Origin: Escherichia phage JLBYU40
Sequence record: NC_105514.1
Direction: 5' to 3' (one strand)
DNA length: 64,000 nt
Shown: positions 12,370 to 27,307 of the stretch, piece by piece
Layout of the letters: each line of letters starts with the position of its first letter
How positions within the stretch are numbered: position 1 is the first letter of the stretch
Notes under the pieces: model-generated
What the model was told of the DNA's origin: nothing
What the model saw: the letters and a program-made list of their open reading frames with translations, nothing else
Database searches by the model: none
Program-made: the position numbers and the translations under genes

Positions 12370-12423
12370 TTGACAGTCAAAATAAATTGTCGTTGACAAT
12401 TTGGATGGATTATGTAATAATAT
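12370..12423 (+). promoter_or_regulatory. Promoter with two palindromic TTGACA-containing operator-like sites upstream of the HNH gene
   Basis: Palindromes TTGACaGTCAA (12370-12380) and ATTGTCgttGACAAT (12386-12400), followed by an AT-rich -10 candidate and GGAGGTGAGG RBS. Confidence 0.45.
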
Positions 12424-12440
12424 ATGTATTGGAGGTGAGG

Positions 12441-12893
12441 ATGTCATTCACACAGCAAGAACTTTTAGATAACTTCCGATATGAAGATGGTAAGTTATTT
12501 AGAACTACAGGAAGAAATGCAGGGAAAGAATGTTGTGTTTCTACGGGTAACGGATATTATCGTATATCTCTAGGGAATAGGACTATGCTTCGGCATAGAG
12601 CAATATTTTTAATGCATCATGGATACTTACCTGATTTAGTAGATCATGTGAATACTATAAAAGGTGATGATCGTATTGAAAATCTTAGAGAGCAGACAGT
12701 GTCCGGTAATCTAAGAAATATCAAATATAAGAAAGGAATGCATGTTTACCCTTCTGGTAGTAAGAACTGGCAAGTAGTATTTACTATTAACCGTAAACGT
12801 ATAGTTAAAGGAACATATGACAACTATGAGGTTGCATGTTCTATGGCCAAGATGTTTAGAGGTCAATTATACGGTAGGGAATCAATCCAGTAA
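12441..12893 (+). CDS. HNH homing/nicking endonuclease with AP2-like DNA-binding domain
   Basis: HNH core HRAIFLMHHGYLP...VDHVNTIKGDDRIENLREQTVSGNLRN; start at ATG 12441 after the RBS. Confidence 0.75.
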   Translation: MSFTQQELLDNFRYEDGKLFRTTGRNAGKECCVSTGNGYYRISLGNRTMLRHRAIFLMHHGYLPDLVDHVNTIKGDDRIENLREQTVSGNLRNIKYKKGMHVYPSGSKNWQVVFTINRKRIVKGTYDNYEVACSMAKMFRGQLYGRESIQ

Positions 12894-13124
12894 AATTTCA
12901 TTTGCAAGGGAGTATTATTTTATAGTATAATATTCCCATAAATGAGAGACATTAGTAAAAATTGATTTTGCTAATTTTTCTTGTTTACAATCCGCGATAC
13001 GGAACAGTTAGGCTGCCCCATTAAGGGTTGTTTTAACTGTTACGTGTTAGTTTTTAAACAAATAGTTAATAGAATACTTAGCGATCTGCGTCCCATAGGA
13101 ACCCTGGTAAGGCCTCGAAGCAAC

Positions 13125-13220
13125 CTAGTATGAGGTGGTTGTGAAGTGAGATGGGAGGAGTGAAAAACTCCGAGACGTGATTCTGTAAGTTATATTGCAT
13201 CTAGTATGAGCTAGTATATG
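13125..13220. repeat. Direct repeats CTAGTATGAG (x2) plus CTAGTATATG in a GC-rich non-coding block
   Basis: Copies at 13125-13134, 13201-13210 and 13211-13220; GNRA-like hairpin GGAGT-gaaaa-ACTCC at 13157-13171. Confidence 0.5.
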
Positions 13221-13428
13221 AAGCATTAGGTGAGCAAATCTGGCTTAGCGGCCATCCTCAAGGATTTGTGCGGTATAACAAAGCAGCAGCGCAGCGTGAA
13301 AGTGGAAGTTGCCACCCCACTTCAGTATTTGCGATTAATTTGTTGAGAAATTGACAGTAACAGTTGTTCTATTCTTTCTGAATAGTCCTAAAGAAAACTT
13401 ATTTCATTTCCAACACAGGAGTATTGTT

Positions 13429-16215
13429 GTGTTTTCAATCCTACAAGGTCATGCAGGATTTCATCGCGATTTAGCCACAGGCAATTGGCGAGAAGTTAAA
13501 GCAGAAGACTATCTTTTTGCTAAAAGATTTTCCTCAAAGCATCCTGAAGGTAAACCAGCTTCAATGCCCTTCAAGTTTGATGTAATTGATGAAGTTGATC
13601 CTCAAACCCTAGTAGAAATGCTTCCTCTTATGAGACGTTTAACGTCTGACCCTCATATCGTTGCGGTACGAGGTCGATGTCTTGCACCTAAAAATAATGT
13701 GCGACGTAAGAAGGGCAACTTTAATGTATCTAACCCAAGTCATATAATTGCAATGGACGTGGATGGTATTGTAGATACAGGTGGTTGTAACAAGTTTGAT
13801 CTTGTTGGCATGGCCCGACATATTATTAGGATGTTAAATAGTATTAGTGAGGATATGTTTCCTCTTGATGCAGGGTTTATCGCTCATGCATCATCTTCGG
13901 CTGGGCTAAAACCAGGTATCCGAATGCACTTAATACTAGAATCTAATGTTAAAGTAACTCAGGGTCAAATCAAGTTCTTATTTACATCTATCAATGAAAG
14001 TAGTAGACAAAAGTATGGCTTTGATATTGCCGACTTAGCTTATTACTCTTCCGTACAGCTCCATTATTTTGCAGATCCGTTATTTACAGATGGTATAGTA
14101 GATCCGTTTAAAGCGGAGGGTGCTTCACGTCTGGTATTTGTTAAGGGTTCTAAAGTAAATTTACCCAATAATCTGGTTGACTATGAAACAACTAGAGGCG
14201 AGTTTAAAGAGGAGTTTTACTCTTTACTCGATCAAATTAAAGGTAAAAAAGCCGCCTCCGATAAAGTAGAGGAAACTATCAGCGAACTAGAAGAAGCTGA
14301 GGATGGAGTGTATCTACGTATTATTCCTAAACTCTATCACAGGGCTTTAGAGGATGGTGTTGATTTTGCATGGCTAGAAAAAGAAATCCGTCCAGCCTTA
14401 TCAGAGTATATTGCAACTAAAGATAATAGTCGTAATATTCAAGACTACTTTAACAACGGTCGTAAGCAGGCTCTGAAAGCGTTTGTTAATAATTCTAAAC
14501 GTGATATACCGGATGTTTTAAAAGGTATTCCACTTAAAAAGCTAGAAACTAACTCTCTAGAGACTGATAACTTCTTGAAATTAAATACTGTACCACCAGA
14601 AGGTTATATGACTTTTGTAAAAGCAAGTCTAGGTACAGGTAAAACTACGGCGGTTGTGCGTTGGCTGGATTCAGGAGTTATTAAGGGTAATTTCTTAGCA
14701 ATTACCAATACTAGGGCACTAGTGTCTTCAAATGCTAAGAAATTTAGTGCAGGACAATATGATAAGTCTGTAGATATGCTTAATTTTAAGCGCGGTGCTA
14801 TTGACCGTATGTCCACAACTATTCACTCTTTACATAAGTTCAAGAGTTTTATTGGTCAAATTGATGCAATCTTTATCGATGAATGTGATGCTGTAATGAA
14901 TGACCTATTATTCGCCCCGGTTGTTAAGCAACGTCGCGAGTGTATTCAGGTTCTTCGGGATATTCTTGCAACTGCAAAAATCATTATATTATCTGATGGT
15001 GATATTAGTGCTGAAACAATTGAAGCATATGGTTCTTTGATTGAGTTTGATAAACCGGTTGCATTTTATAATCATCACCGTAAGATGCTGTCAAAAGCTC
15101 ATGCTTATGAGTTCCCTGATGAATCTAGTATTTGGGTTGCACTTCAGACTTCTCTAGAGATGGGTGAGAAATCTATTCTGGTATCTGACTGTGGGCCGGA
15201 TGAGCTGAATGAGAAGGGCATGGCATTGCGTCATAATACGGGTGCATTAGTTAAGGAAATCCACTCAAACTCTACGTCTGATGTAGATATTAGACGTATC
15301 CTGGATTACACAACTAATGAGTTAATTGACCAACAAATTGATTGCTTATTATGTAGTCCATCCGTAACGAGTGGTGTTGACTTCAACTATTTTGATAACG
15401 TATTCGTTATTACTAGAACCAGTAATCAGGCGCCAAACATGCGTTTCCAAGCAATCAGGCGCGACCGTGGTGCTCAGAACATCTATTATTTTATTGATAA
15501 ATCCACTAGTGGATTCTCCGCAGGTTCCGAACAATATAATATTGATGAAGGTTGGCTGGAGTTAGCACAGCAATTATACGCACGTCGCAGAGAGCTAGAA
15601 TCTAGGAACTATACTAGTACTTTACGTTATTACTTGCTTGATCAGGGTGCAACTATTGATATTTTCAGCGAAAGCTGGGGAACTATTGAAGGTGCTGGTA
15701 AAGAGTACACAGAAGAGCGAATTAAAGCTATTCTACATTCAACTCCGGATTATTGTGCTCCACGTCATGCGGATGCGTATGAAGCTAAACTACTTCTTGT
15801 TCGCTATTATCATCTCGAGTCTATTAAAGATGTAACAGTTGAGCATGTTGAACAATATATCAAAGATAAACCAAATGATCGAGCTGCATTCTTCCATAAG
15901 ATGCATGAGATGTTCTGGGAAGATATTAAGAAGTGTTCAAATGTGACCATTAAACCATTCATAGAAGCTCTGAAAGGTAAGAAGAAGGATTTCTTCCTTA
16001 AAACAGGTCAGAGTGCTAACCCAAAATATGCTAGAATGTATCTTGGTATGATGGGTATTGGTAAGGATATGAACACTGAAAATATTGTAGACTGGTACAG
16101 AACCTATTGTAAAATCGAGTGTATGCCAATTCCTTTCAAATTCATGACAGAGGAAGAGAAGGCTATGGCAGAAGAAGTAATGTCCGAACTTGGAGCAACC
16201 AATGAAGATGCATAA
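13429..16215 (+). CDS. Primase-polymerase (AEP)-helicase fusion; putative replication initiator/origin-binding protein
   Basis: N-terminal AEP motifs IIAMDVDGIVD and IRMHLILES; Walker A SLGTGKTT and Walker B IFIDECDAV. Start placed at GTG 13429 after CAGGAG RBS (ORF-track start 13351 sits in a promoter-like TTGACA). Confidence 0.65.
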   Translation: MFSILQGHAGFHRDLATGNWREVKAEDYLFAKRFSSKHPEGKPASMPFKFDVIDEVDPQTLVEMLPLMRRLTSDPHIVAVRGRCLAPKNNVRRKKGNFNVSNPSHIIAMDVDGIVDTGGCNKFDLVGMARHIIRMLNSISEDMFPLDAGFIAHASSSAGLKPGIRMHLILESNVKVTQGQIKFLFTSINESSRQKYGFDIADLAYYSSVQLHYFADPLFTDGIVDPFKAEGASRLVFVKGSKVNLPNNLVDYETTRGEFKEEFYSLLDQIKGKKAASDKVEETISELEEAEDGVYLRIIPKLYHRALEDGVDFAWLEKEIRPALSEYIATKDNSRNIQDYFNNGRKQALKAFVNNSKRDIPDVLKGIPLKKLETNSLETDNFLKLNTVPPEGYMTFVKASLGTGKTTAVVRWLDSGVIKGNFLAITNTRALVSSNAKKFSAGQYDKSVDMLNFKRGAIDRMSTTIHSLHKFKSFIGQIDAIFIDECDAVMNDLLFAPVVKQRRECIQVLRDILATAKIIILSDGDISAETIEAYGSLIEFDKPVAFYNHHRKMLSKAHAYEFPDESSIWVALQTSLEMGEKSILVSDCGPDELNEKGMALRHNTGALVKEIHSNSTSDVDIRRILDYTTNELIDQQIDCLLCSPSVTSGVDFNYFDNVFVITRTSNQAPNMRFQAIRRDRGAQNIYYFIDKSTSGFSAGSEQYNIDEGWLELAQQLYARRRELESRNYTSTLRYYLLDQGATIDIFSESWGTIEGAGKEYTEERIKAILHSTPDYCAPRHADAYEAKLLLVRYYHLESIKDVTVEHVEQYIKDKPNDRAAFFHKMHEMFWEDIKKCSNVTIKPFIEALKGKKKDFFLKTGQSANPKYARMYLGMMGIGKDMNTENIVDWYRTYCKIECMPIPFKFMTEEEKAMAEEVMSELGATNEDA

Positions 16216-16720
16216 ACCAATGCCTCCTATGGCATTTATCCTAGAAAAGCTTAGGTATGACGAAAGTACTGGGGACTTAATTTGGTTATCTGGCCCAAGG
16301 AAGGGAAAGATAGCGGGCTCCAAAATGAAAACTGGGAGACAGTTAGAGTTTATGATAAATGGAGAGCATACAGCTTACTTAGCCCATAGAATAATCTGGT
16401 TTATAAAGACAGGCGAAGATCCTGGAGATAAAACTATCGACCACAAAGACGGTGATAGTTTAAACAACTTGTGGGATAATTTACGTAAGGCTACCTATTC
16501 CGAAAATGGAAAGAATAAGAAGTGTTCTACTAATTCTACCGGATTCACTGGAGTTGTAAAACGAGGTAATAGGTATATGGCCTACGCTTACTGCAATGGA
16601 AAACAGCATATTTTTGGTAGACGAGATACCCCGGAAGAAGCCCATCAGCTATACCTTAGGGGAGTTAAAGAACTGTTTGGTGAATTTAATCCCTCGGAGA
16701 GATATGACAGTGAAGAATAA
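16202..16720 (+). CDS. HNH homing/nicking endonuclease with AP2-like domain
   Basis: AHRIIW...IDHKDGDSLNNLWDNLRKAT plus GFTGV...RYMAY; start at ATG 16202 after GGAG. Confidence 0.75.
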   Translation: MKMHKPMPPMAFILEKLRYDESTGDLIWLSGPRKGKIAGSKMKTGRQLEFMINGEHTAYLAHRIIWFIKTGEDPGDKTIDHKDGDSLNNLWDNLRKATYSENGKNKKCSTNSTGFTGVVKRGNRYMAYAYCNGKQHIFGRRDTPEEAHQLYLRGVKELFGEFNPSERYDSEE

Positions 16721-16937
16721 AAAATGGGAAACAAGGAAGTTCCCCGTAAAAGAGCGTAAAGTTCCTGTTTACGATACTTCGGAAAAGCTATGTAGGGTGG
16801 TACCGCACAGATTAGCTGGCATCCCTAACATATCCGAATGGTTACTTAAACAACGGAAAACAAACGTGTCTCTTCGCATCGGCTTTGAGTTAGATAAAGT
16901 CTATGCTGAACTTGCTTCTTTGCTCAAGGAATCGTAA
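16704..16937 (+). CDS. Hypothetical basic protein (77 aa)
   Basis: ORF overlapping the HNH 3' end; weak RBS. Confidence 0.3.
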   Translation: MTVKNKKWETRKFPVKERKVPVYDTSEKLCRVVPHRLAGIPNISEWLLKQRKTNVSLRIGFELDKVYAELASLLKES

Positions 16938-16945
16938 AAATTTAT

Positions 16946-16974
16946 TTGCTTTCAGGAAAATTTTTCTGTATAAT
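16946..16974 (+). promoter_or_regulatory. Strong early promoter TTGCTT-N17-TATAAT (PN25-like)
   Basis: aaaatttatttgctttcaggaaaatttttctgtataatagattcataaatttgagagagaggag; from memory this matches the classic T5 PN25 promoter. Confidence 0.8.
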
Positions 16975-17008
16975 AGATTCATAAATTTGAGAGAGAGGAG
17001 TTTAAATA

Positions 17009-17712
17009 TGGCTGGTTCTCGCAGAAAGAAACATATCCATGAAATCCCGGATGAAGTCTTTAAAAAAGTTATAGAGCATCTGGAGAACGGTGGTACTAAG
17101 AAAGCAGCATGTGAAATGCTTGGCGTATCATCCAATCCAACTATGGAAAGGATGATTGAAGAATGGCAAGACCGCCAGATTCAAGTTGCCGAGATGAAGA
17201 AAAAGAAACGTGGTACACTCATTGAAGGTATTGAGTTGGCCAACGTTATTGAACAGTATCTATCTGGCGATTCTTTTGAAGAAATTGCCGACCGTAATTA
17301 CCGCTCTGTAGCAATGGTTAAATCTGTTCTGGAACGCTATGGTGCTTTGCTTCGTTTGAACGATATTGTAGACCCATTGAATCCTCCAATTATTCCTGAT
17401 GATGCTGTGGCAGAAGAATTTGAAGTTGGTGAGCTTGTTTGGGTTCCTGGATACCAGTGTATTGGTGAAATCAAAAAAGCAATGGATAATCCTGTTGGTT
17501 GTTACCGTGTTTGGCTTCTATCAGAAGGCAAACAACAGAACGTCCATTATATGAATTACGAGCTGGCTTCTGTTAAACATCTGGAAAAGTTAGGGGTAGA
17601 CGTAAAATCTCTAGGGTATAAATGGACTCGTGAAGAAATTATCACACTGATTAATGAAGCTGTTAAGGCTGCCTTGAAACTTGATAAAGAAAAAGGAAAA
17701 CGCCGTGAGTAG
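17009..17712 (+). CDS. Putative HTH DNA-binding protein
   Basis: Start at ATG 17009 after the GAGAGAGGAG leader; HTH-like GGTKKAACEMLGVSSN. Confidence 0.45.
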
Positions 17713-20695: not shown

Positions 20696-21475
20696 ATGAA
20701 AATCGAAATTCCAACACAATGTCCCTCTTGTGGTTCTAAGCTAGATCTTGTCAACGGACAATTATTCTGTCGTAATAAGTCCAACTGTCCAGCGCAATCA
20801 AGTAAGTTAATTGAGAACTTCTGTACAAAAATGAAGTTAAAGGGCTTTGGCCCGAAAACTATTGAGAAGCTGGAGCTGACGAAGATTTCAGAACTATTTT
20901 ACCTAGCCGAAGAAGCTTTGGTTAGAGCCGTGGGTAGCAAGGTTGCCGCTAAGTTAATTAGCGAATTAAATACTAAAGTTCGCGGAGACATTGACTTTGG
21001 TTCAGTTCTCGGTTCTTTAGGAATCCCTCTAATTGGAGAGGTTGCAGCAAAGAAATTATCCCAAAATTGCACCAGTTTTCACGATGTGAAGGCTGATGGC
21101 AAAGCTGGAGAAAACTATAAAGCCTGGCTAAATTCCCCACAAGGCAAGGATGTTATCGAATTACCGTGGAAATTCACAACTGGTATTAAAGGTGCTAAAA
21201 CTGAGGTCATCATCACTGATGGTCTAGTAGCCCAACCAAATGGAATCACGGTGTGTATTACCGGATCTTTGCAAGATTTTGCAAATCGAACGGATGCAAC
21301 AAACTATTTAGAAGGTCTAGGATATACGGTTAAGAAATCCGTTACCAAAGATGTCAAATACCTAATCTGTGAGGATGAATCAAAACGTTCTTCCTCATCT
21401 TATAAGAAAGCCGAAACGAATGGGATAGAAATCCTGTCGATTAAAGAACTATTGGAGAAAAATAATAATGTCTAA
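20696..21475 (+). CDS. ligB: NAD-dependent DNA ligase, C-terminal (Zn-finger/HhH/BRCT) fragment
   Basis: Four-Cys Zn finger CPSCGSKLDLVNGQLFCRNKSNCP and C-terminal BRCT-like GITVCITGSL; ATG 20696. Confidence 0.8.
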   Translation: MKIEIPTQCPSCGSKLDLVNGQLFCRNKSNCPAQSSKLIENFCTKMKLKGFGPKTIEKLELTKISELFYLAEEALVRAVGSKVAAKLISELNTKVRGDIDFGSVLGSLGIPLIGEVAAKKLSQNCTSFHDVKADGKAGENYKAWLNSPQGKDVIELPWKFTTGIKGAKTEVIITDGLVAQPNGITVCITGSLQDFANRTDATNYLEGLGYTVKKSVTKDVKYLICEDESKRSSSSYKKAETNGIEILSIKELLEKNNNV

Positions 21476-22235
21476 ACTGAACTGGAACGTAGAAGGTGTA
21501 ACCGAGTCTCTGAAAGCAAAAGCCACTGCTCTGGGTGTTGCTGTAATCTCTCAAGAACAAGTAGCTGCTATTGCTGCTGAACTGGCTGCTGAAACTGGCA
21601 AAGATGTTACTGCTCGCTCTGTTGGCTCTAAACTGCGTAAAGAAGGTTTCGAAGTACAGAAAGCTAACGAAGTACAGAAATCTCCGTGGACTCCTGAGCA
21701 GGAAGCTGAACTGGTTGATTTCCTGAACGCTCATGCTGGTCAGTATACTTATGCTGAAATCGCTGCTGCTGTAGCTGGTGGTCAATTTGGTGCTAAGCAG
21801 GTACAGGGTAAGATTCTGAGTCTGGAAATGACCGCTTCTGTTAAACCAACCGAAAAAGCTGCTGCTGTTCGTTCCTTCACTCCGGATGAAGAAACTGATT
21901 TTGTTAATCAGGTTGTTGCTGGTGCTACTATTGAAGCTATCGCTGCTCACTTCGGTCGTAATATCAAGCAGATCCGCGGTAAAGCTCTGAGCCTGCTTCG
22001 TGAAGGTCGTATCGCCGCTATGCCGGTACAGGAAACCTCAAGTGCTAAAACTCGTGAAGATCTGTTAGAAGGTCTGGATCTGGTTAACATGACTGTTGCT
22101 GAGATCGCTGAGAAAACTGGTAAATCTGAGCGCGGTGTTAAATCTATGCTGTCTCGTCGTGGTCTGGTTGCTAAGGACTATGATGGTGCCGCTAAGCGTG
22201 CTAAACTGGATGCAAAAGCTGCGGCTGCTGAATAA
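21468..22235 (+). CDS. Putative abundant DNA-binding protein with four HTH-like repeats
   Basis: Repeats of about 35 aa (e.g. VAAIAAELAAETGKDVTARSVGSKLRKEG, VAEIAEKTGKSERGVKSMLSRRGL); strongly host-optimal codon usage. Confidence 0.5.
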   Translation: MSKLNWNVEGVTESLKAKATALGVAVISQEQVAAIAAELAAETGKDVTARSVGSKLRKEGFEVQKANEVQKSPWTPEQEAELVDFLNAHAGQYTYAEIAAAVAGGQFGAKQVQGKILSLEMTASVKPTEKAAAVRSFTPDEETDFVNQVVAGATIEAIAAHFGRNIKQIRGKALSLLREGRIAAMPVQETSSAKTREDLLEGLDLVNMTVAEIAEKTGKSERGVKSMLSRRGLVAKDYDGAAKRAKLDAKAAAAE

Positions 22236-22252: not shown

Positions 22253-22286
22253 AAGGGGAGGGGGCTATGCTCCTTCCCCTTTTTGC
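22253..22286 (+). terminator. Intrinsic terminator
   Basis: AAGGGGA...TCCCCTT followed by TTTTTG. Confidence 0.6.
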
Positions 22287-22317
22287 ATTTAGAAGGCACG
22301 AAAGCGTGCAAAGGAGA

Positions 22318-23790
22318 ATGACCTTGTTTAACGTGCAAGCTGTAGTGTTGAAGATGCTTCTAGCTTCCGAACAGAAGCAAATAGCATTGGAAACATTCTC
22401 AAAACTGCATAAAGATCATTTTAATGACGCTTTCTCCTCAATTTACCAAGCCGTCCAGAATTATTATAAAAAATATAACACAATGCCGTCCATTGATGCA
22501 CTGATGCTTGAGGCTAATAGGAACGCCCGCCTTTCTCAAGCTCTAGTCGTTTTAGCTAACACTCAAATTCCAGAAGTTAGCATGGAACAGGCACTTGAAG
22601 TCCTAGAGGCCGAGTATACACAGGATTTATTCCTGAAGCTTCTAGAAACAGACGTGCTTCAAGATTTAACAATGCTGGATCAGGGAGAAATTCTTAACCG
22701 AGTTGCCTCCCTTCACTTAAAATTAGAAGAGAAAGTAACGAATACTGGAAAAGTATTCAACGCAGATAACATGCGTATTTTCCAGAGAGAAGAAGATACC
22801 AAACTGAACTTAATCGCTCTTGGTATTTGTAATGAGTTCGACGCTCAAATTGGTTTAGCTCGCACAGAAACGTTACTGCTTGGTGGTTGGCGTGGTACTG
22901 GTAAATCCATTATCTGTTCAAACATACAGGTTCAGCAATATTTGAATGGGGATATTGCTCCATACTTCTCAATTGAGATGAAAGAACATGAAGTATTTAG
23001 ACGTAATCTAGCCATGTTAGCCGGTGTATCAGCACTAGCAATGCGTAATAATACTCTAGAAGGTGCAGCTCTGTTGAGATTAGCCAGAACTAGAGCTAGG
23101 ATGTTTAATGGTGGTGAAGAGCTTTTCGATAACTTCGTTAAACAGTACACAATGGCTAAGATGAGTGATTTCTACGATATGGAAAGTAAGCTAATAGAAG
23201 GATATGAGCTACATACTCCTATGATTATTGTTTATGATCCTGAGCTGTCTATTACAACAGTTGACGTAGAATTAAATAAATTAGTTGCTAGATATGGGGA
23301 TAAAGTTACAGTAGCTTTACTGGACTATATTAACCAAACCCGACTTCCAGACTCTAAAACCATTGATATGTATGACTGGAAAGAACAGATGGTTGTTAGC
23401 TCGTCTTTCAAATCTATCTGCCAGAAACATAACGTGGCTGGTGTAGCCCCTTACCAGATTGATCAAGATGGTAGAACACGTATGTCAAAGGGGATTCTTG
23501 ATTCCGCAGACATGGCTGCTAATCTTAATGCTGCAAAAGCTGATAATGGTCAAGGTGCTATTATGTTTGACTTCGTTAAGACTCGTTCTTCTGATAGCGT
23601 GAAGTTTATGCCTAAAATGAACTGGGAAACCCTACGGATGGATAACACTACCAACCTAGCAATGGAAGATATATCTCAAATGGAAGCTGAGTTCGTTATC
23701 CCTATTGAGAAGGATAAGCCGGCTCAATCTAAACGTGCTAAGAAAGACAAAGCTGAAAATTCAACGGGTGAACAGGCCAGCGATATATGA
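22318..23790 (+). CDS. DnaB-like replicative helicase (RecA-fold ATPase)
   Basis: Walker A GGWRGTGKS, Walker B-like ALLDYI; start at ATG 22318 after AAAGGAGA RBS. Confidence 0.6.
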   Translation: MTLFNVQAVVLKMLLASEQKQIALETFSKLHKDHFNDAFSSIYQAVQNYYKKYNTMPSIDALMLEANRNARLSQALVVLANTQIPEVSMEQALEVLEAEYTQDLFLKLLETDVLQDLTMLDQGEILNRVASLHLKLEEKVTNTGKVFNADNMRIFQREEDTKLNLIALGICNEFDAQIGLARTETLLLGGWRGTGKSIICSNIQVQQYLNGDIAPYFSIEMKEHEVFRRNLAMLAGVSALAMRNNTLEGAALLRLARTRARMFNGGEELFDNFVKQYTMAKMSDFYDMESKLIEGYELHTPMIIVYDPELSITTVDVELNKLVARYGDKVTVALLDYINQTRLPDSKTIDMYDWKEQMVVSSSFKSICQKHNVAGVAPYQIDQDGRTRMSKGILDSADMAANLNAAKADNGQGAIMFDFVKTRSSDSVKFMPKMNWETLRMDNTTNLAMEDISQMEAEFVIPIEKDKPAQSKRAKKDKAENSTGEQASDI

Positions 23791-24677
23791 GTAGAATAAC
23801 AGAACTACTTGATCTGAAAGGCATTGAATATAAAGACACAGGTGGGGACATCCTCATCTGTTGTCTCAATCCAGATCATGACGATAAACACCCAAGTTTG
23901 CGTATTGACCCTGAAACAGGTATTATGCACTGCTTGAGTTGTGGCTTCGGTAAAGGTATACCGAGCATTTACCACTATTTTAATGAGACTCAGTACCGAC
24001 AGTCCCCAAGGCTATCGCAAGTACGTAAAAAGATTTCAGAGATTAGGAATGGATCAACGAATCTTGCAATTCCTGAATCTGCTTGCCTTTTCGAAGGTGA
24101 TTTCCGAGGTATAAGTTCTAAGACCTTGAAGAAATATTTTGCTTTCCAACACCAAGCAGACTGGGAAGGCAGAATTGTATTCCCAATCACAGATGCTGTT
24201 GGACGCAATATCCTATTTTTGGGTCGTTCTATAAACAGTTCTGCCCCTCCTAAATACTTAGTAAAACCAAAACAAGTTTCACCGCCAATTTTTCCTGTAC
24301 GATATAATACTCCAGTCCTTATTCTAGTTGAAGGCATCTTTGATATGCTGAACCTAGAGGATAATGGTATAGACTATGCTTCTTGCTGCTTTGGTACACA
24401 TCAGTTTACTTCGGATAACATTGCAGATAAGTTCAGTCCTTATATTATTGCCGGTGTAAAAGTTGTTGTTATCTTACTAGATAATGATGCTTCTGGTAAT
24501 AAAGCTGCACAAGCATTGGCCAAGCTAATTCGTACAAAAACGCGTTTAACACCTATAGTTGCTAACTTTCTTCTGCCTGAAGGTAAAGACCCTGGTGACT
24601 TAAATAAAGAAGAGATTGATATGTTAGCAAAACGTATTGAAATTTTAGTTGCTGAATCGCTTAAAGATTTGGTATAA
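23787..24677 (+). CDS. DnaG-like DNA primase
   Basis: Zn-binding CCLNPDHDDKHP...HCLSCG and TOPRIM residues in LVEGIFDM and LLDNDASGNKAA. Confidence 0.75.
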   Translation: MSRITELLDLKGIEYKDTGGDILICCLNPDHDDKHPSLRIDPETGIMHCLSCGFGKGIPSIYHYFNETQYRQSPRLSQVRKKISEIRNGSTNLAIPESACLFEGDFRGISSKTLKKYFAFQHQADWEGRIVFPITDAVGRNILFLGRSINSSAPPKYLVKPKQVSPPIFPVRYNTPVLILVEGIFDMLNLEDNGIDYASCCFGTHQFTSDNIADKFSPYIIAGVKVVVILLDNDASGNKAAQALAKLIRTKTRLTPIVANFLLPEGKDPGDLNKEEIDMLAKRIEILVAESLKDLV

Positions 24678-24739
24678 TATATTGGTAAGTTAGAGAAGAA
24701 ACACTGAAGTTATACTTGCTTACCAAGAGGAGATTAAAT

Positions 24740-27307
24740 TTGAAAATCGCAGTAGTTGATAAAGCTCTAAATAACACTCGTTATGATAAACATTTCCAGT
24801 TATACGGCGAGGAAGTTGATGTATTCCATATGTGTAACGAGAAGTTGTCCGGTCGTTTGCTCAAAAAGCATATTACTATCGGGACTCCGGAAAACCCATT
24901 TGACCCGAATGATTATGATTTTGTTATACTAGTAGGTGCTGAACCTTTCCTGTACTTCGCAGGTAAGAAAGGCATTGGTGACTATACTGGTAAACGTGTA
25001 GAGTATAATGGATATGCTAACTGGATTGCGAGTATCAGCCCAGCCCAGTTACACTTTAAGCCTGAAATGAAACCAGTTTTTGATGCAACAGTAGAGAATA
25101 TCCACGATATTATCAATGGTCGTGAGAAGATTGCAAAAGCTGGTGATTACCGTCCTATTACTGACCCTGACGAGGCGGAAGAATATATCAAGATGGTGTA
25201 TAGTATGGTTATCGGACCTGTCGCATTCGACTCCGAAACCTCAGCATTATACTGTCGAGATGGTTATCTGCTTGGTGTTTCTATATCTCACCAAGAGTAT
25301 CAGGGTGTGTATATTGATTCTGATTGTCTCACAGAGGTTGCAGTATATTATCTCCAGAAAATTCTGGATAGTGAAAACCACACTATTGTTTTTCACAACT
25401 TGAAGTTTGATATGCACTTTTATAAGTACCATCTGGGACTTACATTTGATAAAGCACATAAAGAACGCAGGCTCCATGATACCATGTTGCAGCATTATGT
25501 TCTAGATGAGCGTCGTGGTACTCATGGCTTGAAATCTCTAGCAATGAAGTACACCGATATGGGTGACTATGACTTTGAACTAGATAAGTTCAAGGATGAT
25601 TACTGCAAAGCACATAAAATCAAGAAAGAAGATTTCACCTATGATTTAATTCCGTTTGATATTATGTGGCCTTACGCTGCAAAAGATACCGATGCTACCA
25701 TACGTTTACACAACTTCTTCTTACCAAAAATTGAGAAGAATGAAAAACTTTGCAGTCTGTATTATGATGTCCTAATGCCTGGTTGTGTATTTCTCCAGCG
25801 TGTTGAGGATCGTGGTGTACCAATTTCTATTGATCGCTTGAAAGAAGCACAGTACCAGTTAACTCATAATCTGAATAAAGCTCGTGAGAAGCTGTATACT
25901 TATCCAGAAGTAGTTCAGCTAGAGAAAGATCAGAATGAAGCATTTAATCCTAACTCTGTTAAGCAGCTACGTGTTCTTCTATTTGATTATGTTGGCTTAA
26001 CTCCAACAGGTAAATTGACGGATACTGGAGCAGACTCTACAGATGCAGAAGCTCTGAATGAACTGGCTACGCAGCATCCAATTGCTAAAACTCTGCTAGA
26101 GATTCGTAAGCTGACTAAGCTGATCTCTACTTACGTTGAGAAAATTCTTCTGAGCATTGATGCTGATGGTTGCATTCGTACTGGCTTCCACGAACACATG
26201 ACTACTTCTGGTCGTCTGAGTTCTTCTGGTAAGCTGAACCTGCAACAGTTACCTCGTGATGAATCTATTATCAAGGGTTGTGTAGTAGCTCCTCCTGGGT
26301 ATCGTGTAATCGCATGGGACTTAACAACTGCGGAAGTTTATTATGCTGCTGTTCTATCTGGTGATAGAAATATGCAACAGGTATTTATCAACATGAGAAA
26401 TGAACCTGATAAATACCCTGACTTCCACTCTAACATCGCACACATGGTATTTAAGCTCCAATGCGAACCTCGTGATGTTAAAAAGTTATTCCCAGCTCTG
26501 CGTCAAGCAGCTAAAGCAATTACCTTTGGTATTTTGTATGGTTCTGGCCCAGCTAAAGTAGCTCATTCTGTTAACGAAGCTCTTCTGGAGCAGGCTACTA
26601 AGACAGGCGAACCGTTTGTAGAGTGTACTGTTGCAGATGCTAAAGAGTACATTGAAACTTACTTCGGTCAGTTCCCGCAGCTTAAGCGTTGGATTGATAA
26701 GTGCCACGATCAGATCAAGAATCATGGATTTATCTATAGTCACTTTGGTCGTAAACGTCGTCTGCATAATATCCACTCCGAAGACCGTGGTGTTCAGGGT
26801 GAAGAAATCCGTTCTGGATTTAACGCAATCATTCAGTCTGCTTCTTCTGATAGCCTCCTTTTAGGTGCGGTAGATGCAGATAATGAGATCATTTCTCTTG
26901 GCCTAGAACAAGAGATGAAGATTGTTATGCTAGTTCACGACTCCGTAGTTGCTATTGTTCGTGAAGACTTGATTGATCAATACAATGAAATCCTGATTCG
27001 TAATATTCAGAAAGACCGTGGTATCAGTATTCCTGGCTGTCCGATTGGTATTGATTCAGATTCTGAAGCTGGAGGTTCTCGTGACTATTCTTGTGGTAAG
27101 ATGAAGAAACAGCACCCATCAATCGCTTGTATTGATGATGATGAATATACTCGTTATGTCAAGGGTGTATTACTTGATGCAGAGTTCGAGTATAAGAAAC
27201 TAGCTGCAATGGATAAAGAGCATCCAGATCATAGCAAATACAAGGATGATAAGTTTATTGCTGTATGTAAAGATCTGGATAACGTGAAAAGGATTCTCGG
27301 TGCTTAA
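24740..27307 (+). CDS. DNA polymerase, family A (T5-type)
   Basis: 855 aa from TTG 24740 (MKIAVVDK) after AAGAGGAG RBS; 3'-5' exo FDSET and polymerase motifs. From memory it is near-identical to the T5 DNA polymerase. Confidence 0.9.
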   Translation: MKIAVVDKALNNTRYDKHFQLYGEEVDVFHMCNEKLSGRLLKKHITIGTPENPFDPNDYDFVILVGAEPFLYFAGKKGIGDYTGKRVEYNGYANWIASISPAQLHFKPEMKPVFDATVENIHDIINGREKIAKAGDYRPITDPDEAEEYIKMVYSMVIGPVAFDSETSALYCRDGYLLGVSISHQEYQGVYIDSDCLTEVAVYYLQKILDSENHTIVFHNLKFDMHFYKYHLGLTFDKAHKERRLHDTMLQHYVLDERRGTHGLKSLAMKYTDMGDYDFELDKFKDDYCKAHKIKKEDFTYDLIPFDIMWPYAAKDTDATIRLHNFFLPKIEKNEKLCSLYYDVLMPGCVFLQRVEDRGVPISIDRLKEAQYQLTHNLNKAREKLYTYPEVVQLEKDQNEAFNPNSVKQLRVLLFDYVGLTPTGKLTDTGADSTDAEALNELATQHPIAKTLLEIRKLTKLISTYVEKILLSIDADGCIRTGFHEHMTTSGRLSSSGKLNLQQLPRDESIIKGCVVAPPGYRVIAWDLTTAEVYYAAVLSGDRNMQQVFINMRNEPDKYPDFHSNIAHMVFKLQCEPRDVKKLFPALRQAAKAITFGILYGSGPAKVAHSVNEALLEQATKTGEPFVECTVADAKEYIETYFGQFPQLKRWIDKCHDQIKNHGFIYSHFGRKRRLHNIHSEDRGVQGEEIRSGFNAIIQSASSDSLLLGAVDADNEIISLGLEQEMKIVMLVHDSVVAIVREDLIDQYNEILIRNIQKDRGISIPGCPIGIDSDSEAGGSRDYSCGKMKKQHPSIACIDDDEYTRYVKGVLLDAEFEYKKLAAMDKEHPDHSKYKDDKFIAVCKDLDNVKRILGA

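Follow-up and report, generated by a model that had tools for sequence, protein, structure and literature searches.

T5 is a classic model phage, and its D2 protein has so far been treated only as a helicase resembling herpesvirus UL9. The locus described here raises the question of whether D2 is a primase as well, and of what a phage that encodes a conventional DnaG-type primase would do with a second one. The locus lies in a 64,000-nucleotide stretch of Escherichia phage JLBYU40 (NC_105514.1), called the window below and numbered from its first letter. Its source is a T5-like phage (Tequintavirus), and its gene at 13429-16215 is, on sequence and position, the ortholog of bacteriophage T5 D2. 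D2 is a known, biochemically studied protein. What appears to be new, and is supported by fold, motifs, architecture and genomic context, is the presence of an intact archaeo-eukaryotic primase (AEP) module within it and of a dual-primase system across the Demerecviridae. The first third of D2 is predicted to be an intact primase domain of archaeal/eukaryotic type. Two distinct primases would thus seem to be present in T5-like phages, a pairing that surveys of phage replication genes had left unrecorded.

The product matches phrog_3712 ('replication origin binding') with E=0 over positions 1-926 of 927, and its first 189 residues are 90% identical to T5 obp. It shares with T5 D2 a length of 928 residues, the GTG start and the genomic position, and nothing substantive differs between the two proteins. 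By megablast the 2.8-kb gene matched 445 phage records, nearly all of them T5-like phages of Salmonella and Escherichia, at DNA identities of up to 96.8% (96% to Tequintavirus orthologs annotated from the same start). Gene order follows that of Tequintavirus MM-1 (nrd genes, Sir2, HNH, D2, HNH, ligase, D5-like regulator, DnaB-like helicase, primase, DNA polymerase) and also agrees with that of T5. The biochemistry of the protein comes from Wong, Sayers & Sanders (2013; PMC3632103), who characterised T5 D2 (AAU05245, 928 amino acids) as a DNA-dependent ATPase and a bipolar superfamily 2 (SF2) helicase related to herpesvirus UL9, and whose K405E mutant was dead. For residues 1-390 they give only a predicted helix-turn-helix (HTH; 308-329) and a coiled coil (270-289) and mention no primase domain; no description of an AEP or primase-polymerase domain in T5 D2 was found in the literature. 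At the level of annotation the primase idea does exist, since a minority of GenBank records name the gene 'DNA primase', 'putative DNA primase' or 'DNA primase C' (DaisyDussoix, GEC_vB_N3, S124-S131, SP01 and PG07).

AEPs are defined by three motifs: motif I, hhhDhD/E, which binds metal; motif II, sxH, which binds the nucleotide; and motif III, hD/E (PMC5862659). All three can be found in the N-terminal domain of D2. The first-pass annotation, made from the letters of the window alone, had singled out AMDVDG and HLIL as AEP motifs, and both are present (residues 108-113 and 167-170), with the catalytic residues D110, D112, H167 and D202 conserved. An alignment of eight Demerecviridae proteins (one each from phages of Escherichia, Klebsiella, Pectobacterium and Aeromonas and four from Vibrio phages), with identities down to 27%, contains only about 20 positions that never vary among the first 300 residues, including D110, D112, S155, S157, G159, R165, H167, D202 and P217. 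Farther out, residues were counted in a diverse set of 79 members of the N-domain family at about 20% identity. Both aspartates of motif I are kept in 77 of 77 sequences (the other two rows are gapped), and in motif II, where the family consensus is S-A-H, S155 is found in 77, G159 in 76 and H167 in 76 of the 79. The motif III block is similar, with D202 in all 79, Q210 in 74, H212 and Y213 in 73 each and P217 in 78. On the predicted structure the motifs lie where those of an AEP are expected: the DxD pair ends a strand, the serine-rich loop comes before the strand that carries H167, and D202 lies just after the next helix (Table 1). Structure prediction and a fold search both return the catalytic fold of an AEP for this domain. 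The two outcomes that the first-pass annotation had named as fatal to its proposal, namely that no AEP fold would be predicted or that the domain would be a degenerate copy, did not materialise, the catalytic residues being conserved in the eight phage proteins as in the 79 homologs. The domain is presumably catalytically active, and it would prime rather than only extend.

The domain also belongs to a large family, and the company that this family keeps bears on its function. A profile search of 1.84 billion representatives, run with an exhaustive HMMER library, recovered 1,970 clusters (821 at E<=1e-10). In two earlier word-indexed searches the same domain had given only 2-3 matches, a figure that reflects the sensitivity limit of the index and not absence; a later profile search returned the T5-like proteins. 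Members are either stand-alone proteins of about 400 residues or fusions of 800-1,450 residues, in which the partners are DUF5906, VapE (both D5-type superfamily 3 (SF3) NTPases), PriCT_2, PriCT_1, D5_N, AAA_25 and UL9-like SF2 helicases. For instance, one fusion (P0063) has the N-domain at 74-319, PriCT_2 at 347-419 and DUF5906 at 581-689, the canonical AEP-PriCT-SF3 layout. These partners are the ones that accompany AEP primases, and by this measure the family behaves like a primase family. A very similar fusion repertoire has been published for the All3500-like AEPs of the PrimPol-PV1 supergroup, which are fused to RepA, VirE, D5-type SF3 and UL9-like SF2 helicases and PriCT-1 (Kazlauskas et al. 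2018, PMC5862659); the likeness is drawn from that description. A candidate for the motif IV arginine of PrimPol-PV1 is R234, which follows motif III in the D2 family and is near-invariant (78 of 79 homologs). PrimPol-PV1 is defined by a relaxed motif II histidine (PMC5862659), whereas the D2 family keeps the histidine in 76 of 79.

In the case of the stand-alone members, the gene lies directly downstream of an AlpA/HTH_17-family gene in all four of the loci examined, which represent three members. The genes that follow, overlapping or adjacent, are a DEAD-like fragment in one locus, a 653-residue protein in another and short truncated open reading frames (ORFs) at contig ends in the remaining two; one contig with a stand-alone homolog also has a small-terminase gene. 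An arrangement of this AlpA type has been described for the replication modules of phage satellites of Gram-negative bacteria (PMC6092414), and by analogy the stand-alone modules have the look of replication modules that belong to phage satellites or integrative elements.

Directly C-terminal to the AEP core of D2 is a helix bundle whose fold matches are to AEP-fusion proteins such as pRN1 ORF904. Fold searches with the catalytic domain and with the bundle both retrieve viral and plasmid AEP-helicase fusions, and the order of parts in D2 is that of pRN1 ORF904, vaccinia D5 and its monkeypox virus (MPXV) counterpart E5, the African swine fever virus (ASFV) PrimPol C962R and phage PAU gp68: an N-terminal AEP, a helical module (of PriCT/HBD type in those proteins, putatively so in D2) and then a helicase. 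The primase is N-terminal in 94% of fusions according to a global survey (Kazlauskas 2016). D2 differs from D5, ORF904 and C962R in that these use SF3 helicases and its motor is a UL9-like SF2 helicase, and in that its AEP is unmatched by the existing AEP models of Pfam. AEP-helicase fusions as such are widespread among viruses and plasmids, and pairings of an AEP with an SF2 helicase were already on record for phage PAU gp68 (Kazlauskas 2016) and for the All3500-like AEPs with UL9-like helicases (PMC5862659).

The proposal that a Walker A/B helicase core is fused to the AEP-type domain was borne out, and the core is of SF2 type. Neither Walker A (GTGKT, 402-406) nor Walker B (FIDECD, 482-487) varies among the eight Demerecviridae proteins, and both agree with the motifs mapped in T5 D2; K405 and motifs V and VI are conserved too. 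The Pfam model PF02399 (Herpes_ori_bp) scores above its gathering threshold, and the Walker motifs, motif VI and a UL9-like fold are all found. The structural alignment with UL9 spans 396 residues, running past the helicase core into part of the C-terminal domain, while the next dozen SF2 helicases align over 283-339 residues, mostly about 300. No family match was obtained for this C-terminal domain (about 705-928). Herpes simplex virus 1 (HSV-1) UL9 itself (PDB 9hgi/9hgj; PF02399) has 16% residue identity to D2 and is without an AEP domain; herpesviruses prime with a separate AEP, UL52, whereas in D2 the AEP is fused, and UL9 unwinds DNA in the 3'-5' direction only, T5 D2 in both. The NCBIfam model CyRepA1 (cyanobacterial plasmid replication protein) matches residues 393-708 (14605-15552) at E 6e-35. 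Since its 121 bits fall under the family cut-off of 200, D2 should be regarded as a relative of CyRepA1 and not as a member; the match connects T5 D2 with the Rep helicases of plasmids in addition to UL9. The RepA proteins of phages N15 and PY54 and the cyanobacterial CyRepA1 plasmid Rep proteins are initiators in which one polypeptide unites a primase and an SF2 helicase, the make-up proposed here for D2. Kazlauskas (2016) describes N15 RepA as a DnaG-primase joined to an SF2 replicative helicase; its primase module is of Toprim/DnaG type, whereas that of D2 is an AEP.

The second half of the question concerns the other priming system. A conventional primase had been proposed at 23787-24677, and this gene does encode an intact DnaG-type enzyme: Zn_ribbon_DnaG (CHC2), DNAG_N and Toprim_2/4 all score above their cut-offs, the motifs CxxH..CxxC, VEG and DNDASG and the acidic residues E182, D232 and D234 are present, and the protein aligns to the DnaG structures of Aquifex and E. 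coli (2au3, 1dd9 and others). The DnaB-like helicase proposed alongside it is likewise a helicase (DnaB_C, phrog_19), and its ortholog in Bf23 is annotated 'replicative DNA helicase D6'; the start given for it, 22318, is probably 51 nucleotides too far downstream, as the ATG at 22267 gives the 507 residues of the MM-1 protein. The DnaB-like gene overlaps the primase gene by 4 nucleotides and the family A polymerase gene begins 38 nucleotides downstream of the primase, and from their sequences the three look like a conventional fork machine. Two priming systems, as the first-pass annotation had suggested, do coexist in this phage. They coexist widely: the D2 N-domain was found in 904 phage records and the DnaG-type primase in 910, essentially one shared set, with identities down to 25-40%. 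By host genus the counts of records (D2 N-domain/DnaG) are 357/357 for Vibrio, 269/270 for Salmonella, 128/128 for Escherichia, 81/82 for Klebsiella, 10/10 for Proteus and 7/7 for Aeromonas. According to the global survey of Kazlauskas (2016), a double-stranded DNA (dsDNA) virus encodes an AEP or a homolog of DnaG but not both, the only exception being Rhodothermus phage RM378. Under that rule T5-like phages, with their recognisable DnaG-type primase, would have counted as DnaG-only. RM378, reported to have both types of enzyme, is an unrelated phage. Because the AEP went unnoticed in T5-like phages, the Demerecviridae (about 900 records) may stand beside it as a second and much larger exception, and a whole phage family would then join the single virus recorded so far as encoding both primase types.

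The reading that we lean towards makes D2 a primase-helicase for initiation that stands apart from the DnaB/DnaG primosome of the fork. The protein would have four parts in order: an AEP-fold primase (with its DxD, H and D), a helix bundle, perhaps akin to the one by which pRN1-type primases hold the template and the initiating nucleotides, a UL9-like SF2 helicase and a helical C-terminal domain. An origin or its vicinity, or else a nick or D-loop, would be where D2 loads on the DNA of the phage; the SF2 motor of D2 would open the duplex and its AEP domain would lay down the first primer or primers for the T5 family A polymerase. The DnaB-like helicase and the DnaG-type primase would then form a conventional fork primosome and take over lagging-strand priming. 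Such a division of labour is favoured because the long co-retention of both primases argues for distinct roles. The role in initiation is suggested by the relatives of D2, which are origin-binding proteins or initiators of plasmids and satellites (UL9, CyRepA1, RepB' and pRN1 ORF904), and a role of this kind was suggested earlier for T5 D2 by Wong et al. from its unwinding independent of ATP hydrolysis (PMC3632103).

Several points weigh against this reading. The literature contains no report of T5 D2 acting as a primase or polymerase; the assays of the 2013 study covered only ATPase, helicase and DNA binding, and the binding to single- and double-stranded DNA was non-specific, the name 'origin binding' coming from homology only (PMC3632103). 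It is also not obvious why a phage with a DnaG-type primase should need a second one. Within the domain, the motif II triplet reads R-M-H, with an arginine and not a small residue at the 's' position, and, compared with classical AEPs, the loop of motif II has 4-7 extra residues. Fold scores for the domain as an AEP are moderate, and no profile of Pfam, NCBIfam or the PDB matches residues 1-390 or the profile of the N-domain family. Pfam gave no AEP match with whole D2, the N-domain or the 79 homologs and NCBIfam gave none for the N-domain; searches of PDB sequences by phmmer and hmmsearch with single, 8- and 79-sequence queries yielded only chance matches to helical proteins. The sole profile trace is one weak AEP-TOTE match (E 0.037) in one homolog. 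A search with domain hidden Markov models, put forward at the outset as a check, has in this way recovered the helicase core through its UL9-like Pfam model and given no AEP match for the N-terminal domain. The AEP assignment rests on fold, motifs and architecture, since the sequence-profile routes all failed.

Of the other ways to read the same evidence, the strongest accepts an active AEP domain and gives it a different task. D2 could be a repriming, gap-filling or end-processing enzyme of PrimPol type, acting where forks have stalled, where T5 DNA has its natural single-strand nicks or in recombination-dependent replication, with the bipolar helicase providing access. We regard this as unlikely, as the partners of the family are those of replication initiators (PriCT, D5_N, SF3 helicases and CyRepA1) and not Ku, ligase or other partners of non-homologous end joining (NHEJ), its contexts are AlpA-primase-helicase modules of mobile elements, and the best helicase relative, UL9, is an origin-binding initiator. 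A second alternative is that the domain has the AEP fold and no catalysis, serving as a module for DNA binding, oligomerisation or polymerase recruitment while the DnaG-type enzyme does all of the priming. The intact DnaG-type primase, the atypical motif II with its long loop and arginine, and the lack of any reported activity for the N-terminal domain would all fit. Yet D110, D112, H167 and D202 would not be expected to stay invariant from Demerecviridae proteins at 27% identity to 79 homologs at about 20%, nor to be kept equally in stand-alone versions that have no helicase, and we consider a silent domain quite improbable. That the domain is no AEP at all, being some other alpha/beta or palm-like fold that AlphaFold and the structure search have placed near AEPs, is very hard to credit.

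With D2 read as an initiator primase-helicase, an intact primase domain would supply a concrete and testable model of initiation, for which the published His-MBP-D2 construct can be assayed directly. The wider implication is a large AEP family overlooked by the current domain databases, and because these miss it, its members are annotated 'hypothetical' or 'origin binding'. Tentatively, one could go as far as to see in the D2 N-domain an AEP family of about 2,000 clusters at 50% identity, without a curated model, that provides T5-like phages, along with satellites and integrative elements of AlpA type, with their initiator primase, with the Demerecviridae breaking the 'either AEP or DnaG' rule by having an AEP-SF2 initiator beside a DnaB/DnaG fork primosome; taken as a whole, this broader picture is possible but doubtful.

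Table 1. Features of the D2 locus and of the second priming system in the window, with stand-alone homologs in other loci (numbered within their own contigs).
Feature	Coordinates	Strand	Remarks
Promoter and conserved structured RNA leader	12902-13400	+	TTGCAA-18-TATAAT (12902-12931), then ~450 nt running into the D2 start
Shine-Dalgarno AGGAG	13417-13421	+	7 nt before GTG; AGGAG or AGAAG kept in the A8 alignment
D2/'replication origin binding protein' ortholog gene	13429-16215	+	928 aa; GTG start; stop codon included
AEP-like catalytic domain (predicted)	13429-14178	+	residues 1 to about 250
AEP motif I, hhhDhD: IIAMDVDG (D110, D112)	13744-13767	+	end of strand 104-114; both Asp invariant
AEP motif II region: SSSAGLKPGIRMH (S155, G159, H167)	13891-13929	+	loop, then strand 164-176
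AEP motif III (IAD202) and conserved VQxHYxAxP block	14023-14079	+	from homolog conservation
Five-helix bundle, candidate PriCT / pRN1-HBD-like accessory domain	14182-14496	+	residues 252-356
SF2 helicase core, UL9-like	14593-15528	+	residues 389 to about 700; Walker A 14623-14646, Walker B 14872-14889
C-terminal all-helical domain	15541-16212	+	residues about 705-928; helices at pLDDT (predicted local distance difference test) >90 in the model
DnaB-like (superfamily 4, SF4) replicative helicase, T5 'D6'	22267-23790	+	PF03796 7.6e-9; phrog_19 1.3e-62
DnaG-type primase, intact	23787-24677	+	Zn_ribbon_DnaG, DNAG_N, Toprim; phrog_47
Family A DNA polymerase with 3'-5' exonuclease (T5 D9 ortholog)	24716-27307	+	PF00476 3.3e-66; PF01612 2.5e-39
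Stand-alone N-domain homologs	L009 1275-2411; L013 1255-2466; L014 1058-2269; JGI contig carrying P0011		380-400 aa

The extent of the N-terminal domain depends on where translation begins. The open frame around the gene runs from 13351 to 16215 on the + strand with GTG 13429 in frame, and the first in-frame ATG after it is at 13564 (residue 46). The first-pass annotation preferred the GTG to the ATG of the ORF list, and several observations side with it: the Shine-Dalgarno sequence; the MM-1 ortholog, annotated from the identical codon with the same length of 2787 nucleotides; the cloning of T5 D2 by Wong et al. from the same GTG, with a primer that encodes VFSILQG (PMC3632103); and an ATG in Sugarland and My1 at the position aligned with GTG 13429, MFSIL being conserved family-wide. 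Residues 2-23 are confident beta-strands in the predicted structure (pLDDT 89-97), and because a start at 13564 would remove them, GTG 13429 is taken as the true start.

The region upstream of D2 has features of its own. A gap of 535 bp (12894-13428) precedes the gene and opens, in a promoter scan, with a sigma-70-like promoter; at the equivalent place in T5 the early promoter P32 is annotated, and the promoter/terminator scan found no terminator-like site before the D2 start at 13429. The leader of about 450 nucleotides can be aligned across seven phages of three genera, with its ends conserved and its centre variable and allelic: the central domain comes in a type shared by the window and MM-1 and a type shared by T5, Eps7 and SP01, with pairing kept in both. 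The predicted structure has 79 pairs in 9 helices, and 91.9% of the cells of the alignment are paired, against 39-50% when the partners are slid. Changes on both sides are seen at 35 pairs, against 9-14 in the slid controls, and the observed values were reached in 0 of 500 shuffles, a contrast that is inflated since the structure was derived from the same alignment as the covariation test. Folded as a single sequence, the leader has a z of -3.3. No Rfam family matches the upstream RNA, and a covariance model built on its 5' domain picked up nothing in the loci of the Vibrio and Aeromonas phages. In four of five Demerecviridae loci from those hosts (L004, L005, L007 and L008) an unannotated stretch of 0.6-1.6 kb lies directly upstream of the D2 ortholog; in the fifth (L006) this stretch is annotated with small hypothetical ORFs. 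The RNA looks, from its sequence, like a long structured leader of the D2 mRNA. It may also be part of an origin, either as a transcript that opens the DNA or as one that is extended by the AEP domain of D2. When 12850-13450 was inspected for iterons or for the AT-rich signature of an origin, nothing beyond short two-copy repeats came up, and the apparent 'TAACAGTT' repeats were rejected as origin repeats, being the two strands of a long-range RNA helix.

An imperfect 25-nucleotide direct repeat (76% identity) brackets the leader region at 12895-12919 and 13401-13425. Its first copy lies just after the stop codon of an HNH gene and overlaps the -35 region, its second lies just before the Shine-Dalgarno sequence of D2, and the pair may be the footprint of an HNH-gene insertion. 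HNH_3 homing-endonuclease genes stand on both sides of D2, at 12387-12893 (+) and 16190-16720 (+), the latter overlapping the last 26 nucleotides of D2. T5 is without the upstream HNH_3 gene and has a different ORF and a terminator there instead. No tRNA genes were found in the 64-kb window.

Care must be taken with the name 'D2', which is used inconsistently. Wong et al. and the Sugarland note apply it to the 928-residue obp gene. The My1 and Sugarland records have as their 'D2 protein' the product of the next gene downstream of appreciable size (16903-17712, +, in the window; weak HTH_28 match), a gene that MM-1 calls 'helicase'. Just upstream of the DnaB-like gene lies a D5-like regulator gene (21468-22235, +), which matches Sigma70_r4_2 and, weakly, several HTH/Myb-type models; the product of its MM-1 ortholog is annotated 'transcriptional regulator, D5-like'.

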